A stretch of DNA of 64,000 nt from an uncultured Flavobacteriales bacterium (GTDB lineage: Bacteria > Pseudomonadota > Alphaproteobacteria > UBA8366 > CAVOAK01): positions 3,808 through 67,807 of the forward strand of contig CAYQNO010000013.1 of the NCBI GenBank assembly GCA_964419045.1, given 5' to 3'. The notes beneath the pieces were generated by a model. It was not told where the DNA came from. It saw only the letters and a program-made list of their open reading frames with translations, and did no database searches. The translations under genes and the position numbers were made by a program. Shown here in pieces: positions 38,591 through 45,862 of this stretch; within the stretch, counting starts at the first letter, position 1, and each line of letters starts with the position of its first letter.

Positions 38591-39877
38591 ATGATGGAGG
38601 CAAATTTCATTTCCACAGCCTTTCAATTTGCCGGTATCATGATTATCGGCGTCGTCTTGATTCAAGTTGTCCTGATGCTTATTTCGTCATTCCGTCATTT
38701 TTCACGTGAGGACGAACGGGAGAAATTAGGGCTCAATACGTTGCGTTACCGGACCGAAGCCCTCCTAGTTCGTAGCAATACTGAGCGGGAACGCGTGGAG
38801 CTTTCCTGGAACGGTTTTCGTAAATTCGAAATACAAAGTATCGTTTCCGAGGCAAAGGACATTAATTCATACTACCTGGTGCCACACGATGGAAAACCTC
38901 TGCCCCCATTTTTGCCAGGCCAATACCTAACATTCCAATTAAAGATTCCAGATTTAGCAAAGCCCCTTATTCGATGTTATTCGCTATCAGACAGTCCAAA
39001 TCACTCGGATCGCTACAGAGTCTCCATAAAAAAAATTCTGTCACCACGTAACGAACCCGATGCCCCACCTGGTCGCTCATCTTCATACTTCCATGAGAGT
39101 CTGAACGTCGGCGATATTCTCGATGTCAAGGCGCCGAGTGGTCATTTTTATCTACAAACTGCAAAAGATAATTCTATCGTGCTAATAGGAGGTGGGATCG
39201 GTATCACGCCTGTACTCAGCATGTTGAACGCGCTTTGCGAATCAGAATCCAAGCGAGAAGTTTGGTTTTTTCTGGGCCTACGAAACGGTTCTGAACACCC
39301 CATGAAGGATCATCTAACGGAGTTAGCTAATGTTCACGAAAATCTCCAATTGAATATTTGCTATAGTAATCCCGAGGAACATGACGTTAAAGGACACGAC
39401 TACCAGCATGCGGAACGAGTCAGTGTTGACTTGTTCAAACGATTACTACCTTCTAATAACTATACATTTTATATCTGTGGACCTCCCCCGATGATGGAAA
39501 TGGTGACTGAGGATTTAAAGTTATGGGGGGTGCCTGAGGATGAAATTCACTTCGAGGCATTTGGCGCAGCGACGGTCAAGCGGACGAAAGTGGTCACAGC
39601 AGAACCCAAGGAAGGAGCGGTTGTTCCGCATATCGTATTTTCTCGGTCAGGAGCTACACTTCCATGGGATGGAAGTGCCGAATCGCTGCTTGACTTTGCA
39701 GAGCGTAACGGAATTGATATCGATTCTGGCTGCAGAGCGGGCAATTGTGGTACTTGCATCACGGCCATAAAATCGGGCGAAATAGAGTATAGTATCGAGC
39801 CTGGAGCTCCACCCGAAGATGGGTCATGTCTGACTTGTATTTCAATACCAAAATCTAATCTAACGTTGGACGCATGA
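38591..39877 (+). CDS. Membrane-anchored FAD/NAD(P)H-binding oxidoreductase with C-terminal [2Fe-2S] ferredoxin (FNR/PDR-type)
   Basis: N-terminal TM (FAGIMIIGVVLIQVVLMLI), RCYSLS, GRSSSY, GGGIGITP, YICGP, FEAFG, CRAGNCGTC...C. Confidence 0.9.
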   Translation: MMEANFISTAFQFAGIMIIGVVLIQVVLMLISSFRHFSREDEREKLGLNTLRYRTEALLVRSNTERERVELSWNGFRKFEIQSIVSEAKDINSYYLVPHDGKPLPPFLPGQYLTFQLKIPDLAKPLIRCYSLSDSPNHSDRYRVSIKKILSPRNEPDAPPGRSSSYFHESLNVGDILDVKAPSGHFYLQTAKDNSIVLIGGGIGITPVLSMLNALCESESKREVWFFLGLRNGSEHPMKDHLTELANVHENLQLNICYSNPEEHDVKGHDYQHAERVSVDLFKRLLPSNNYTFYICGPPPMMEMVTEDLKLWGVPEDEIHFEAFGAATVKRTKVVTAEPKEGAVVPHIVFSRSGATLPWDGSAESLLDFAERNGIDIDSGCRAGNCGTCITAIKSGEIEYSIEPGAPPEDGSCLTCISIPKSNLTLDA

Positions 39878-41067: not shown

Positions 41068-42819
41068 ATGGCAAAATCGGTGCTGATCCAGCAGTCTCGG
41101 CGTTGGGACAATCCATTCAGCGCGGATATGACCGAAGCCGATGTAGATCGAATTTTAGATATCGAGTTATTTCGCAACATGGATGCCGAAAAGTTTCCGG
41201 CATCTGCGTCATTACGAGATATCATACGAAATGACATGTGCATCCGCGAATATCGTAGTGGTGATATTATTATCCGTGAAGATGATTACGATACTTCGGC
41301 ATTCATCGTAATGTCAGGCAGTGTGCGTGCAGTATTGCCGCCAGGGCTAGCCAATGAAGTACTTGGTAGGGCTGATATGCCAAGGAAAGGACTCTGGGAA
41401 GCATTTAAGCAGATCTGGACTAATCCCGAATTTCCGGAGGTTCGTGACCCTTCTCGTTATACTAACGCTCGCGGTACTGGTACACGACAAATCGATTCAG
41501 AAGAAATACATATTTTTCTCCAGAACGTGCCGGATATTTTAGAGAAAAATCGTACCGTACAATTTGGGCCTGGCGAAATGTTCGGTGAAATCGCTGCCCT
41601 TGCTCGTGAGGCGCGGACTGCGACTATCTTTGCTGATGAAGATTCAGTACTCGTCGAAGTTAGACGTCAGGGAATACTCAATATACGACGCCGCGCAGTC
41701 GAGTTTCGCCAATACGTGGATCAGTTATATCGGGAACGTACACTTACAACTCACTTGCAAGAAACGCCAATATTCAACCATCTCAGAGCGGAAATAATTG
41801 AGATGATTGCGGAGAAAACATTATTTGATACTTTTGGGGATTTCTCCTGGTACATAAACTATAAGAAAATGATCGAAGACAGCAGTAGTGAAAGGCTGGC
41901 TCAGGAACCAATTATAGTAGAAGAAGGGCATTACCCTGATGGCCTCTTGATGATCCGAAGCGGATTTGCACGCGTAAGCCGCCGGCTAAACCATGGTCAA
42001 CAGACCGTGCGCTATATTGGTCGCGGTACAGTCTTCGGCTTTGATGAAATTGTGCGGCAATGGCAGAGTGGTAGTAAAGACTCAGAAGGCTATCGCTACT
42101 CCCTACGCTCTGTGGGCTATACTGACGTCCTAAGAGTCCCAACATCGATTATCGAAGAATACGTACTACCCACCATGCCGGAAGATATTCTAACTGCTCA
42201 TTTGGAAACTGAGTTAAATACATACGTAGAAACCAATAAGGATACGTACGAGGAAAACCCGGACGGTGATGATCCTGTAATAGGGACGTCCAAACTCGAA
42301 TTTATCGTTGAGAACCGTTATATTAATGGTACTGCTACGATGCTAATAGATCTTGACCGGTGTGTTCGGTGTGATTCTTGTGTCGAAGCTTGCGCTACTG
42401 GTCATAACAACAATCCGCGATTTCTCAGGCATGGAAGGACTTTCGATCACTTCATGGTGGCTAACGCTTGCATGCACTGTACTGATCCTGTCTGCATGAT
42501 TGGATGTCCAACTGGCGCAATCCACCGTAATGCATTAGGGGGGCAAGTTGTCATAAATGATGATACCTGTATTGGCTGTGCATCATGCGCAAATAATTGC
42601 CCATACGATAATATTAGAATGGTGGAAATTCGAGATTCAAATGGTGAATTTATTCGTGATGAAGCTACCAATTCAACAATCTTAAAAGCCTCTAAATGTG
42701 ATCTTTGTGCTGATCAGCCAGGCGGTCCAGCATGCCAGCGCGCTTGCCCACACGATGCGTTATACCGAGTAAATATGGGCGAGCTGCCATCCATCACTGC
42801 ATTACTGAGCCGACAATGA
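41068..42819 (+). CDS. Cytoplasmic protein with two cNMP-binding domains fused to a DmsB/NrfC-like 4x[4Fe-4S] domain
   Basis: CNBD1 FGEIAALAREARTAT; degenerate CNBD2 (GTVFGFDE); Cys motifs CVRCDSCVEAC, CMHCTDPVCMIGCP, CIGCASCANNCP, KCDLC...PACQRACP; no signal peptide. Confidence 0.9.
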   Translation: MAKSVLIQQSRRWDNPFSADMTEADVDRILDIELFRNMDAEKFPASASLRDIIRNDMCIREYRSGDIIIREDDYDTSAFIVMSGSVRAVLPPGLANEVLGRADMPRKGLWEAFKQIWTNPEFPEVRDPSRYTNARGTGTRQIDSEEIHIFLQNVPDILEKNRTVQFGPGEMFGEIAALAREARTATIFADEDSVLVEVRRQGILNIRRRAVEFRQYVDQLYRERTLTTHLQETPIFNHLRAEIIEMIAEKTLFDTFGDFSWYINYKKMIEDSSSERLAQEPIIVEEGHYPDGLLMIRSGFARVSRRLNHGQQTVRYIGRGTVFGFDEIVRQWQSGSKDSEGYRYSLRSVGYTDVLRVPTSIIEEYVLPTMPEDILTAHLETELNTYVETNKDTYEENPDGDDPVIGTSKLEFIVENRYINGTATMLIDLDRCVRCDSCVEACATGHNNNPRFLRHGRTFDHFMVANACMHCTDPVCMIGCPTGAIHRNALGGQVVINDDTCIGCASCANNCPYDNIRMVEIRDSNGEFIRDEATNSTILKASKCDLCADQPGGPACQRACPHDALYRVNMGELPSITALLSRQ

Positions 42820-43637
42820 ATTTGGCGACCCGTCGCCGACGAAATTTGTTGATTACACTAGCAATTGCGATCGGCTTATATTGTGTACACTGGATTTACA
42901 ACGCAGCTCTTTACAATGCCGCATTCCTCTCAGGATGGGCGCTATTCATCTCGATTCTGTTTCTTACTCTCTACAATTTGCGTAAAAAAATTACTATGCT
43001 ACCAATCGGTTCGAATGCAGCGTGGCTGCAACTACATATCTATCTTGGTTGGCTCGTAATATTTTTATTTGTCCTCCATATTGGATGGCGCGTCCCCGAT
43101 GGGTTAATCGAAGTTACTCTAGCTATCTTGTTCATAGTCGTCGCAGGAACCGGAGTCTTAGGCATTTTACTATCTCGTACCCTACCTAAACGCCTCACTC
43201 GACGAGGCGAAGAAATTATTGTCGAGCGTACGCCAATCTTTCTTGCCAGATTGCGGGAAGAAGCAGAACAGATTGTCATCATTTCGGCCTCAGAAACTGG
43301 CTCAAACACAATTCGTGACTTTTATGCGGAACATCTACATTTCTATTTTAGAAAACCGAGAAATTTTTTGCTACACTTGATCTCCTCAAATCGAGGAGTG
43401 TTCAAATTACAATCTGAATTCAATAATACTGACCGCTACCTCAATGCAGCAGAGCGTGAGCTTTTTGGTAAATTACGCACTCTTGTAGTAAAAAAGGACG
43501 ACATAGATTTTCAATACGCGCTCCAAACCATGCTCAAAGCTTGGCTTTTGATACATATTCCTGTCACCTATGCCCTTATACTGTTGGCAGTGCTACATCT
43601 AGTCATCGTTCACGCATATAGCAGCGGACTTGGATGA
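42816..43637 (+). CDS. Inner-membrane ferric-reductase-like (diheme b) transmembrane protein
   Basis: About 5 TM; His pairs H74-x13-H88 (TM3) and H247-x13-H261 (TM5); ATGA overlaps with both neighbours. ATG 42816 preferred over 42732. Confidence 0.75.
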   Translation: MNLATRRRRNLLITLAIAIGLYCVHWIYNAALYNAAFLSGWALFISILFLTLYNLRKKITMLPIGSNAAWLQLHIYLGWLVIFLFVLHIGWRVPDGLIEVTLAILFIVVAGTGVLGILLSRTLPKRLTRRGEEIIVERTPIFLARLREEAEQIVIISASETGSNTIRDFYAEHLHFYFRKPRNFLLHLISSNRGVFKLQSEFNNTDRYLNAAERELFGKLRTLVVKKDDIDFQYALQTMLKAWLLIHIPVTYALILLAVLHLVIVHAYSSGLG

Positions 43638-45862
43638 CAAACCCACTGCAGCATTTCGATTTCAGGAAAAGTACCTATCAGCGCCCTAATCAGACTTGGG
43701 TCTGTGGCAGAATGGTGGACGGAAACCCCTGTCAGATTGGTCCTGATATCAAGGGGAACTGTCAAGCTCACCACGAATGCCAGCCCAGCAGAAATAAAGA
43801 TAGGTGGCAATGTAATCGATCTGAATCTTCAGGTGGCAAATGCGATGAAGGCCCTATGCCGGACGGCACATGCTGCAGAGCCATCCCACGTTGTCAACCA
43901 ATCAGAAGCTGGCGTGGCCGTATACGTTCTATTAGAAATTGGGTATTCATAGCATCTGTAGGTTTACTTCTTACAGCTCTTAGTAGTCCCTTTACTTCAA
44001 ATTTTTTAAATCCCGGAAATGTTACCTTTCAACATGGTGAAATAGCTGACTGTACCGTGTGCCACTCAGCGCACAATAAGAGCGTATTGAGCTGGCCGCT
44101 GGCAGTTTTTACTCAGTCTACTAAAGATAAGGACAATGAGCTTTGTATTGCTTGTCACGATCTAGGAAAGAATCCTTCTGATCCGCACGGACTACCATCT
44201 GATACTCTCAGCGCTCTCACAAAAACAGCAGACACCAACAACGTCACCGGACAACCACTTCTACTGACCGCAGCATCCTGGGCCAGAGATCTTCCTCTCC
44301 ACGATGATACTGGTATTGCATGTTCAACATGTCACCAAGAACATAACGGTAAAGCATTTGAATTGACGGCAATGTCTAACAAACAGTGCGTAGCGTGCCA
44401 CGTAGTACATTTTTCAGCGTTGTCACGTGGCCACCCAGAATTCACTAATTTTCCGTTTGATCGCCGTACGCGAATTAACTTTGATCACGGGAGTCATCTG
44501 GGAACACATTTTCAAACAACAGAATTCAAGGAACATGCGCCACAGCAATGCACTACATGCCATGTGCCTGAAGACACTGGTCGTAATATGGTGGTCAAAG
44601 AATTCGAAACAATGTGTACTGCCTGTCACGGTGCGCAGATTGTTGGTTTTGGGAGAGCTACCTCGAAGGGGCATAAGATATTTTCTGTACCAGGGCTTGA
44701 CGTTACTGCTCTTGAAGAACGCAACGTACCTATCGGTCAATGGCCTGAAGACGCTGAAGGTGGAATAACGCCCTACATGGACATCCTACTCGCTATGGAT
44801 CAAGAATATAGAATCGCAAAATTGAATCTCCAAGGGCTGGACCTCCTTGACCTCGAGAATGCGAGCGATGAGGAAATTGCGAATATTGAACGCTTAGCTT
44901 GGAGTATAAAGGAATTGTATTTCGATCTTGCAACTAAGGGCATTGCAGCTCTTCAATCACGATTCGAGAATGCTTTGGGCTACGAGTTAGGATCCGACGA
45001 ATTAGCACGACTGACGAACCTGTTACCGATGGATGGAATCATGGCAGCTAAAAACCTTTGGTTCCCCAGTCTATTGGATGAAGTCAGGCGACATCGTGAT
45101 GGTGAAATAGTTGCTATTCAAAATATTAGTCAGATAGATAGTTTTGGTTCTTTATCCAACGTTGTTAAAGGCTCAAGTAAAAATGGTCAGAATATAGGTC
45201 TGAGCGATGATGAAATAGGAGATGATGAAATAGGAGATGATGATATTGAAGAAGAGGAAGTTGGAGACGATGAAGATACAAATATAAAATCAGTCATAAA
45301 CGAAGATTGGGCAAGCGCGGGGGGCTGGTATCGAGAGGGTTTTAGTCTGCGCTATCGACCTTCAGGACATGCAGACACCTTCATTAGGAGTTGGCTTGAT
45401 ATATCGGGGCAAGCAACAACAAATTTGAGCAAAGATTCAACAGTTGAAATATTCGAAAATCTGTCAAATGCTAAATCACCCGGCATATGTTCAAAATGCC
45501 ATAGCGTAGATGTTATTGGAACTGGCCTGTACAAGGTGAATTGGGAGAGTAAACGGCGAATTCCAAACCAGCAGACGTTTACAGCGTTTTCACATGTTAG
45601 TCACTTCACACTTTTGGACGAGCGTGGCTGCCTAACCTGTCATAGCCTAAATCTGGAGGCTGAGTTTGCTGATGGTTACAAGAACTCCGACCCAATGACA
45701 TTCTCAAGTAACTTCAATCCCGTTGAGCGGACCACCTGCGCAGCATGTCATACCGCAGCAGAAGCTGGAGACAATTGCGTAACCTGCCATAACTATCATA
45801 TTGGTATATTTCCACCTGCACAGACTAACACACACAAAATGATGAAACAGGCCCAGAACTAA
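43634..45862 (+). CDS. Membrane-anchored decaheme cytochrome c with duplicated Cys-rich N-terminal module
   Basis: Ten CxxCH (CTVCH, CIACH, CSTCH, CVACH, CTTCH, CTACH; then CSKCH, CLTCH, CAACH, CVTCH) in a 6+4 arrangement; TM near residues 103-121 preceded by an Arg-rich segment. Confidence 0.9.
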   Translation: MTNPLQHFDFRKSTYQRPNQTWVCGRMVDGNPCQIGPDIKGNCQAHHECQPSRNKDRWQCNRSESSGGKCDEGPMPDGTCCRAIPRCQPIRSWRGRIRSIRNWVFIASVGLLLTALSSPFTSNFLNPGNVTFQHGEIADCTVCHSAHNKSVLSWPLAVFTQSTKDKDNELCIACHDLGKNPSDPHGLPSDTLSALTKTADTNNVTGQPLLLTAASWARDLPLHDDTGIACSTCHQEHNGKAFELTAMSNKQCVACHVVHFSALSRGHPEFTNFPFDRRTRINFDHGSHLGTHFQTTEFKEHAPQQCTTCHVPEDTGRNMVVKEFETMCTACHGAQIVGFGRATSKGHKIFSVPGLDVTALEERNVPIGQWPEDAEGGITPYMDILLAMDQEYRIAKLNLQGLDLLDLENASDEEIANIERLAWSIKELYFDLATKGIAALQSRFENALGYELGSDELARLTNLLPMDGIMAAKNLWFPSLLDEVRRHRDGEIVAIQNISQIDSFGSLSNVVKGSSKNGQNIGLSDDEIGDDEIGDDDIEEEEVGDDEDTNIKSVINEDWASAGGWYREGFSLRYRPSGHADTFIRSWLDISGQATTNLSKDSTVEIFENLSNAKSPGICSKCHSVDVIGTGLYKVNWESKRRIPNQQTFTAFSHVSHFTLLDERGCLTCHSLNLEAEFADGYKNSDPMTFSSNFNPVERTTCAACHTAAEAGDNCVTCHNYHIGIFPPAQTNTHKMMKQAQN
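45206..45277 (+). repeat. 15-bp tandem repeat (GATGATGAAATAGGA x2 plus a degenerate third copy) encoding an acidic linker
   Basis: Protein DDEIG-DDEIG-DDDIEEEEVGDDED between heme 6 and heme 7. Confidence 0.9.

Follow-up and report, generated by a model that had tools for sequence, protein, structure and literature searches.

The closest described system to the genes considered here is the ptdABCDEFG operon defined by Elbon, Stewart & Glass (bioRxiv 10.1101/2023.11.21.568154). In that account PtdA is a penta-heme protein, PtdB a porin, PtdC a flavin adenine dinucleotide/nicotinamide adenine dinucleotide (FAD/NAD) oxidoreductase, PtdD a tetra-heme protein, PtdE a 4Fe-4S protein that binds cyclic nucleotide monophosphates (cNMP), PtdF a ferric-reductase-like membrane protein, and PtdG what is called a "periplasmic deca-heme protein". 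Transcripts of the operon are present in marine oxygen-deficient zones, with high transcription of ptdAB, and its function was stated to be completely unknown (bioRxiv 10.1101/2023.11.21.568154). We analysed a 64,000-nucleotide stretch of contig CAYQNO010000013.1, hereafter the window, in which the genes run in the order A-B-C-D-E-F-G and match the published operon gene for gene. Our subject is the N-terminus of its PtdG, which carries, ahead of a single transmembrane (TM) helix, two tandem units with four invariant cysteines (Cys) each, together the Cys module. The gene family and the operon are already published, and the cytoplasmic Cys module is previously undescribed: the word "cysteine" appears nowhere in the preprint's main text, where neither the N-terminal module nor the signal-anchor topology is described (bioRxiv 10.1101/2023.11.21.568154), and our literature search found the operon only in that preprint and no such module described on any multiheme cytochrome.

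The layout of ptdG is as follows, in window coordinates, with lengths in amino acids (aa).

43634..45862, + strand: ptdG, signal-anchored decaheme c-type cytochrome, 742 aa (open reading frame with 10 CxxCH)
43634..43696, + strand: N-terminal lead, residues 1-21, LQxFxFxxSxYERPNQ, with Y15, R17 and P18 near-invariant (conservation in 158 homologues)
43697..43786, + strand: four-Cys unit 1, residues 22-51, W22-x-C24-G-R...C33-x2-G36-P37-x3-G41-x-C43-x5-C49-x-P51
43787..43804, + strand: inter-unit linker, residues 52-57, with a conserved D-R just before W58 (conservation in homologues)
43805..43900, + strand: four-Cys unit 2, residues 58-89, W58-x-C60-x-R62...G67-G68-x-C70-x2-G73-P74-x3-G78-x-C80-(C81)-x5-C87-x-P89
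43901..43936, + strand: Arg-rich juxtamembrane stretch, residues 90-101, consensus V-R-S-L-R-A-R/K-R-G
43937..43999, + strand: single TM helix, residues 102-122, an N-in/C-out signal anchor (Kyte-Doolittle)
44051..45790, + strand: periplasmic heme domain, bounded by the first and the tenth CxxCH and containing a variable acidic insert

The two repeats picked out in the preliminary description were located exactly where it had placed them, at residues 22-51 (43697-43786) and 58-89 (43805-43900), and the repetition is more than chance, because, when each unit is turned into a profile from 158 homologues, the two profiles align with an hhalign probability of 95% and an E-value of 2.7e-8. Across 52 units, the W, the four Cys, the G-P pair, the following G and the P are invariant. 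Residues 1-100 hold nine Cys (24, 33, 43, 49, 60, 70, 80, 81 and 87) and zero CxxCH. Eight of these, C24, C33, C43, C49, C60, C70, C80 and C87, are invariant in all 158 homologues, as are G36, P37, G41, P51 and G78, and W22, G25, W58, R62 and P89 are nearly so; in the lead, Y15 is invariant and R17 nearly invariant in the same alignment. The expectation that the Cys would be conserved in homologues is thus borne out for eight of them. The count of nine given earlier is correct for this protein but not for the family, since C81 is found in only 88 of the 158 homologues. A role for C81 or H82 as a ninth ligand was considered and rejected, as 37 of 158 homologues have neither, and for these two reasons we treat the module as 2 x 4 Cys. 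No His, Asp or Glu is conserved in the module as a possible ligand; the Cys follow the spacing C-x8/9-C-x9-C-x5/6-C, with no CxxC anywhere in residues 1-100. One variant, P0239 (L092:10001-10240, with PtdE present), has lost unit 1 and has a different residue in place of C87; it keeps C60, C70, C80 and C81, so that C81 may serve there as a substitute fourth ligand. The variant comes from a single Logan contig, and an assembly error is possible.

The side of the membrane on which the module lies follows from the architecture of the chain. PtdG has 10 CxxCH motifs, at residues 140-719, and exactly ten are present in 111 of 120 full-length homologues (≥600 aa); Pfam and NCBIfam matches on the protein are to multiheme-cytochrome domains only, at residues 134-720. 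Hydrophobic 19-mers with a Kyte-Doolittle mean above 1.4 occur only at residues 102-122, and RSWRGRIRSIRN precedes them. c-type hemes are attached in the periplasm, and because the hemes are periplasmic and the sole TM helix is preceded by the positive charges, residues 1 to ~100 are placed in the cytoplasm. The net charge of residues 1-100 averages +7.8 over the 158 homologues. The preliminary description had argued for the same orientation from the positive-inside rule, and the position of the module before the sole TM helix of a c-type cytochrome, with the positive charges ahead of that helix, agrees with it. Just before the helix, at position 96, 60 of 158 homologues have R and 55 have K, and at position 97, 151 have R; judged by this conservation, the R/K-R motif does not look like a strict twin-arginine (Tat) signal, with its invariant pair of Arg in S/T-R-R-x-F-L-K, and the module stays cytoplasmic under either export route, Tat or otherwise. 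On the other side of the membrane, PtdG carries an acidic low-complexity insert (DDEIGDDEIGDDDIEEEEVGDDED, window 45130-45300), whose region is the one hypervariable part of the protein in length and sequence (alignment columns ~500-640), ranging from absent to more than 100 residues.

The start of the gene is fixed by its neighbour: the ptdG ATG overlaps the ptdF stop (GGATGA, an ATGA overlap). In other genomes this start is often missed. Late PtdG calls begin ~100 codons downstream, and the resulting ~300-nt "gap" after ptdF encodes the Cys module. For example, the module lies in frame upstream of miscalled starts at L088:9700-10000, L089:9730-10000, L090:9705-10000 and L091:8515-8820, and four proteins that seemed to have lost the module (P0181, P0222, P0228 and P0253) were rejected as losses because their start codons are miscalled. 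Roughly one in ten public gene calls for PtdG begins too late in this way and hides the module. When module-less forms were sought with a search by the heme domain only, followed by inspection of the N-termini of the matches, a recognisable module was missing in 31 of 107; 13 of these belong to a truly module-less Nitrospira clade, and the remainder are mostly truncated or have late starts.

Searches against known families returned nothing for the module. The preliminary description had not recognised the spacing as that of any ferredoxin or zinc-finger family, and Pfam, NCBIfam, the PDB and Foldseek were all empty in this respect. At E≤10, Pfam gave zero matches for three module sequences, Fer4-type and other Fe-S (iron-sulfur) families included; the module region was unmatched in NCBIfam; and against the PDB, a phmmer sequence search, an 81-sequence module profile and a single-unit profile all remained without a match. 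An AlphaFold2 model from nine sequences was uninformative (mean predicted local distance difference test score, pLDDT, 36.8). With 81 sequences from genome loci the mean pLDDT rose to 74.8 (predicted template modelling score 0.49), and the modelled module is compact and mostly non-regular, with coil plus short strands, as expected for a small metal-knit domain. The best Foldseek match of this pLDDT-75 model in the PDB was no better than E 7.4.

The module is widespread, and where it is found it belongs to PtdG. An initial word-based search gave eight homologues, and the N-terminal profile built from them, run against 1.84 billion representatives, matched 644 proteins at E≤1e-3 and 572 at 1e-10. 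In all of the best 150 of these 644 matches, the module occupies residues ~1-100 of a PtdG-type protein. When one genome per species was scanned, 327 species genomes proved to have it, with carriers that include Alpha- and Gammaproteobacteria, Verrucomicrobiota, Planctomycetota, Nitrospinota and Gemmatimonadota. Carriers not labelled as metagenome-assembled genomes (MAGs) include Hwanghaeella grinnelliae, Marinobacter sp. CHS3-4, Ca. Uabimicrobium amorphum and Planctomycetales ZRK34, and Halofilum ochraceum and Ca. Scalindua were also among the organisms found. With the single-unit profile, the strong matches in 401 genomes of the window's phylum were pairs inside PtdG-type frames only (12 genomes; frames of 670-940 aa, with one exception). 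Short matches that might have represented the module as a stand-alone gene were fragments or frameshifted pieces, and this candidate was rejected. In the 2.28-Mb genome to which the window belongs, the module occurs once. On this evidence, the four-Cys unit appears to be specific to PtdG.

Genes upstream of ptdG encode the proteins with which the module may work.

42816..43637, + strand: ptdF, membrane protein directly upstream of ptdG
41068..42819, + strand: ptdE, cytoplasmic protein with cNMP-binding domains and a Cys-rich 4Fe-4S ferredoxin domain
38591..39877, + strand: ptdC, TM-anchored FAD/NAD(P)H/[2Fe-2S] reductase

By reading, PtdF has about five hydrophobic segments, two of which bear H-x13-H, plus a ~110-aa cytoplasmic loop. 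The ferredoxin domain of PtdE, also by reading, contains four ferredoxin-type motifs with 16 Cys in all, which could accommodate four clusters. PtdE is a candidate partner of the module and PtdC a second candidate among the cytoplasmic proteins. The isoelectric points (pI) are 9.3 for the Cys module (charge +8), 5.0 for PtdE and 5.45 for PtdC. ptdE, ptdF and ptdG are contiguous and in the same order at 80 of 80 loci (L006-L085; 41068-45862 in the window). A profile of the repeat, which had been proposed earlier as a probe for co-occurrence with the operon, leads to the N-termini of PtdG-type proteins and to this three-gene core. The other genes vary: across the 80 loci ptdA-D are upstream, divergent, downstream or absent, with ptdA, ptdB and ptdC often divergent or downstream and ptdD sometimes displaced. 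At L003 and L004 there are only D-E-F-G, with a Tll0287-like gene ahead.

Natural losses of the module bear on what it does. In the Nitrospira clade the module is truly missing, as ptdG starts immediately after the ptdF stop. The operon there is the variant A-B-C'-D-F-G, without ptdE at the locus (L086:4121-11893, L087:4207-11869, L094:4241-11980), though the gene may lie elsewhere in these genomes; ptdC is cut to 155 aa, with one TM helix and the 2Fe-2S domain left and the FAD/NAD domains deleted, and ptdF retains both H-x13-H pairs. In the PtdG tree this clade is nested within module-bearing proteins, and its closest relatives, with the same D-F-G order, are graded, from two intact units in P0257 through one in P0262 and P0242 to none in the crown group. 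P0262 and P0242 each hold one complete hybrid four-Cys unit, made by two different in-register deletions. Elsewhere the copy number of the unit ranges from 0 to 3; it is mostly two, with one in L112, L142, L153 and L156 and three in L132 (L132:1412-1900). This range of copy numbers and the hybrid units show, at the level of sequence, that the units are autonomous, and a deeper-branching group of single-unit PtdG proteins may represent the state before duplication.

A marine clade known from metagenome loci has all four combinations of PtdE and module.

PtdE present, two units: L099, L152
PtdE present, no module: L128; L139, L165
PtdE absent, two intact units: L114, L116, L126
PtdE absent, Cys-less relic or no module: L122; L125, L162; L141

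Where both states could be scored, the loci were distributed as follows.

PtdE present: 127 loci with the module, 7 without
PtdE absent: 2 loci with the module, 6 without

Every PtdE-less lineage has module-less or decaying members, and in the PtdG tree the presence of the module changes at least 9 times and that of PtdE at least 2 times. The comparison of these loci shows module loss to be enriched among lineages that lost PtdE. We had first favoured, from the Nitrospira clade, a strict version in which the module is an adaptor for PtdE, and the metagenome loci with all four combinations weakened it. The earlier proposal that the module docks the cytochrome onto the cytoplasmic Fe-S proteins holds in part: the contiguity of ptdE, ptdF and ptdG at all 80 loci and the loss or decay of the module in every PtdE-less lineage support a link, but the link is not obligatory, as L128, L139 and L165 have PtdE without the module and L114 and L093 the module without PtdE. 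Because intact PtdE and PtdF coexist with module-less PtdG, the module is dispensable for the redox core of PtdE, PtdF and PtdG, and we read it as an accessory rather than an obligatory electron relay. Among the loci there is also a MAG contig (L095:1-2505) on which the Fe-S part of PtdE is fused to the TM helix and hemes of PtdG, without PtdF and without the module. As a Rosetta-stone fusion (P0252) it was rejected, the contig being 2.5 kb long and patchworked in appearance, with PtdE-like sequence just upstream that is interrupted by stop codons; a chimeric or rearranged assembly is the probable origin.

Distant PtdG-like decaheme cytochromes (22-25% identity) have a different domain in the same slot. 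Before their TM helix stands an N-terminal FHA domain, which is a non-redox interaction domain that binds phosphothreonine.

L170:6179-6590, FHA domain of a PtdG-like decaheme cytochrome
L171:3927-4340, FHA domain of a PtdG-like decaheme cytochrome
L172:6329-6745, FHA domain of a PtdG-like decaheme cytochrome
L175:6257-6680, FHA domain of a PtdG-like decaheme cytochrome

PF00498 scores 23-38 bits in three of the four (cut-off 20.7), and L170 falls below it at 14.8. These cytochromes are encoded after PtdE-like genes and, with the exception of L171, after PtdF-like genes. The FHA domain and the Cys module are both cytoplasmic and both directly precede the single TM helix of a decaheme cytochrome, whereas the FHA fold (PF00498) is unrelated and has no Cys motif. 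The arrangement suggests that in the FHA forms the electron conduit from cytoplasm to periplasm may be under phospho-dependent control.

Taken together, we tentatively favour, at somewhat less than an even chance, the reading that the N-terminus of PtdG is an accessory Cys4 foot, an adaptor or regulatory element that most likely holds structural Zn(Cys)4 sites, zinc being the metal. It would be an array of autonomous four-Cys mini-domains of ~32-36 aa each, two in this genome, lying next to PtdF on the cytoplasmic side of the inner membrane, with ~12 residues between the array and the TM helix. Each unit would fold around one metal ion through its four invariant Cys, with Zn the most likely metal, and together the units would form a basic protein-interaction or regulatory adaptor for acidic cytoplasmic input proteins. 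The adaptor may position chiefly PtdE, the cNMP-regulated four-cluster ferredoxin, and possibly PtdC, on the PtdF-PtdG membrane core, and even without the module electrons could still reach PtdF and the PtdG hemes from the cytoplasmic proteins. The pI values, with a basic module (9.3) and acidic PtdE (5.0) and PtdC (5.45), support such an adaptor. We infer the metal, the choice of Zn and the partner from sequence comparison, the metal because no other type of ligand is conserved and eight invariant cytoplasmic Cys are otherwise hard to explain. Several points weigh against this reading. Most cytoplasmic proteins are acidic, so that charge complementarity is weak evidence, and a spacing without a CxxC knuckle is unusual for structural Zn sites. 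The context is that of a redox chain, where Fe-S would be natural. The association of module and PtdE rests on only 2-4 independent losses of PtdE. Finally, intact modules without PtdE exist in L114, L116 and L126 and in L093, a PtdE-less operon, and because they persist, PtdE is not the module's only partner.

The choice between Zn and Fe-S is close, and both the lack of a CxxC knuckle and the redox context favour Fe-S. If each unit ligates an Fe-S cluster, which we regard as quite possible though not the leading explanation, two clusters would sit at the membrane surface and would either carry electrons on from PtdE or PtdC to PtdF's inner heme or act as a sensor of O2, nitric oxide (NO) or redox state that gates the conduit. 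Two sets of four invariant Cys within ~65 residues follow the size and duplication logic of the 2[4Fe-4S] bacterial ferredoxins, and they lie ~12 residues from the membrane, beside a PtdF with H-x13-H on two hydrophobic segments, in a gene that is genetically locked to a multi-cluster 4Fe-4S ferredoxin. Spacings of x5 are known in Fe-S motifs, such as CX5CX2CX5C of RseC, whose N-terminal cytoplasmic domain, which reconstitutes an O2-sensitive cluster (PMC11729352), is a precedent for the Fe-S alternative. In Nitrospira, the passage from two units to one to none runs alongside the trimming of the cytoplasmic chain, where PtdE is lost and PtdC is cut to its 2Fe-2S part. However, PtdG without a module occurs with intact PtdE, PtdF and PtdC (L128, L139, L165), so that a relay is unneeded for the main path; the copy number varies from 0 to 3; a non-redox FHA domain fills the slot in distant relatives; and no Fer4-type or other Fe-S family matched at E≤10. 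It is because the relay is not required that we place the Zn adaptor ahead of the Fe-S clusters, and these ahead of a thiol switch, a role in biogenesis and, last, a periplasmic module or an artefact.

The same dispensability for the redox core would suit a thiol redox switch, in which the Cys, with or without Zn, would shift between the thiolate and disulfide forms when cytoplasmic oxidants act on them, and so turn the conduit on or off. Zinc-containing anti-sigma factors and Hsp33 are precedents, the system already has one regulatory head in the cNMP domains of PtdE, and distant relatives have a regulatory FHA domain in the slot. We consider a switch unlikely, as the CxxC and HxxxCxxC motifs of known switches are missing, all eight Cys are equally invariant, and the sequence data fit a static site as well as they fit a switch. 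That the module directly precedes a signal anchor with a basic juxtamembrane stretch also raises the idea of a biogenesis or topology element, a fast-folding plug that would fix the N-in orientation or recruit targeting or heme-maturation factors, with no role in electron input. This we find improbable, since many ten-heme PtdG proteins have the same anchor without the module (the Nitrospira clade, L128, L165), and a pure biogenesis role does not predict the enrichment of losses in PtdE-less lineages. To a periplasmic, disulfide-bonded module or a product of a wrongly chosen start codon we give hardly any weight: the Gly/Pro-rich Cys repeats do resemble extracellular disulfide modules and several public gene calls begin after the module, but the module is N-terminal to the sole TM helix and so on the opposite side from the hemes, 158 homologues keep the same frame from residue 1 onward, the start is set by the ATGA overlap with ptdF, and the late starts are miscalls with the module in frame upstream (L088-L091).

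For the ptd system, these results mean that PtdG is not simply periplasmic: it spans the membrane and shows a conserved, probably metal-bound domain to the cytoplasm. The module faces the compartment of the NAD(P)H- and cNMP-linked proteins, and it offers a handle on how the two halves of the conduit are joined or regulated. If the Fe-S alternative were true, PtdG would be an unusual one-chain, two-compartment redox protein, its clusters assembled in the cytoplasm and its ten c-type hemes attached in the periplasm. The sequence W-x-C-x-R...C-x2-G-P-x3-G-x-C-x5/6-C-x-P would then be a new cluster-binding motif, and a relay or an O2/NO sensor would stand where electrons enter a widespread conduit from the cytoplasm to the outer membrane.

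Among known Cys domains, several share single features with the module. Of the HdrB-type CCG motif (CXnCCGXmCXXC) there is at most a CC, present in only 88 of 158 homologues, with no G after it, no CXXC and no Pfam match. C33-x9-C43 and C70-x9-C80 exist as in twin-CX9C (CHCH) proteins, where two helices with one CX9C each form disulfides, but here the segments have an invariant G-P and G and are modelled as coil rather than helix, with no Pfam match. Tandem zinc fingers and ribbons are similar in their four-ligand units of ~30 aa, their variable copy number and their role in protein interaction, and the ZAS domains of anti-sigma factors are likewise cytoplasmic and N-terminal, with a TM helix next. 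The module has no CxxC or HxxxCxxC knuckle, where zinc ribbons and classical fingers have paired CxxC (or CxxH) ones; its spacers are 8-9, 9 and 5-6, and it gave no Pfam, PDB or Foldseek match. A clostridial-type 2[4Fe-4S] ferredoxin also has eight Cys in ~55-65 residues, a tandem four-Cys duplication and a last Cys near Pro; the module has no CxxCxxCxxxCP, no CxxC in residues 1-100 and no Fer4 match at E≤10. RseC/RnfF of the SoxR-reducing system has CX5CX2CX5C (three Cys conserved) in single copy and no c-hemes on the chain; its CX2CX5C core motif is missing in the module, no sequence similarity was detected, and the resemblance is one of architecture only. As in PtdG, a small cytoplasmic N-terminal Cys motif, there followed by TM helices, belongs to a membrane electron-transfer system, and the isolated RseC N-terminal domain reconstitutes an O2-sensitive Fe-S cluster (PMC11729352). 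The module of PtdG represents a new domain family, though of a familiar type, namely a small Cys4 domain that a membrane redox protein carries on its cytoplasmic side.

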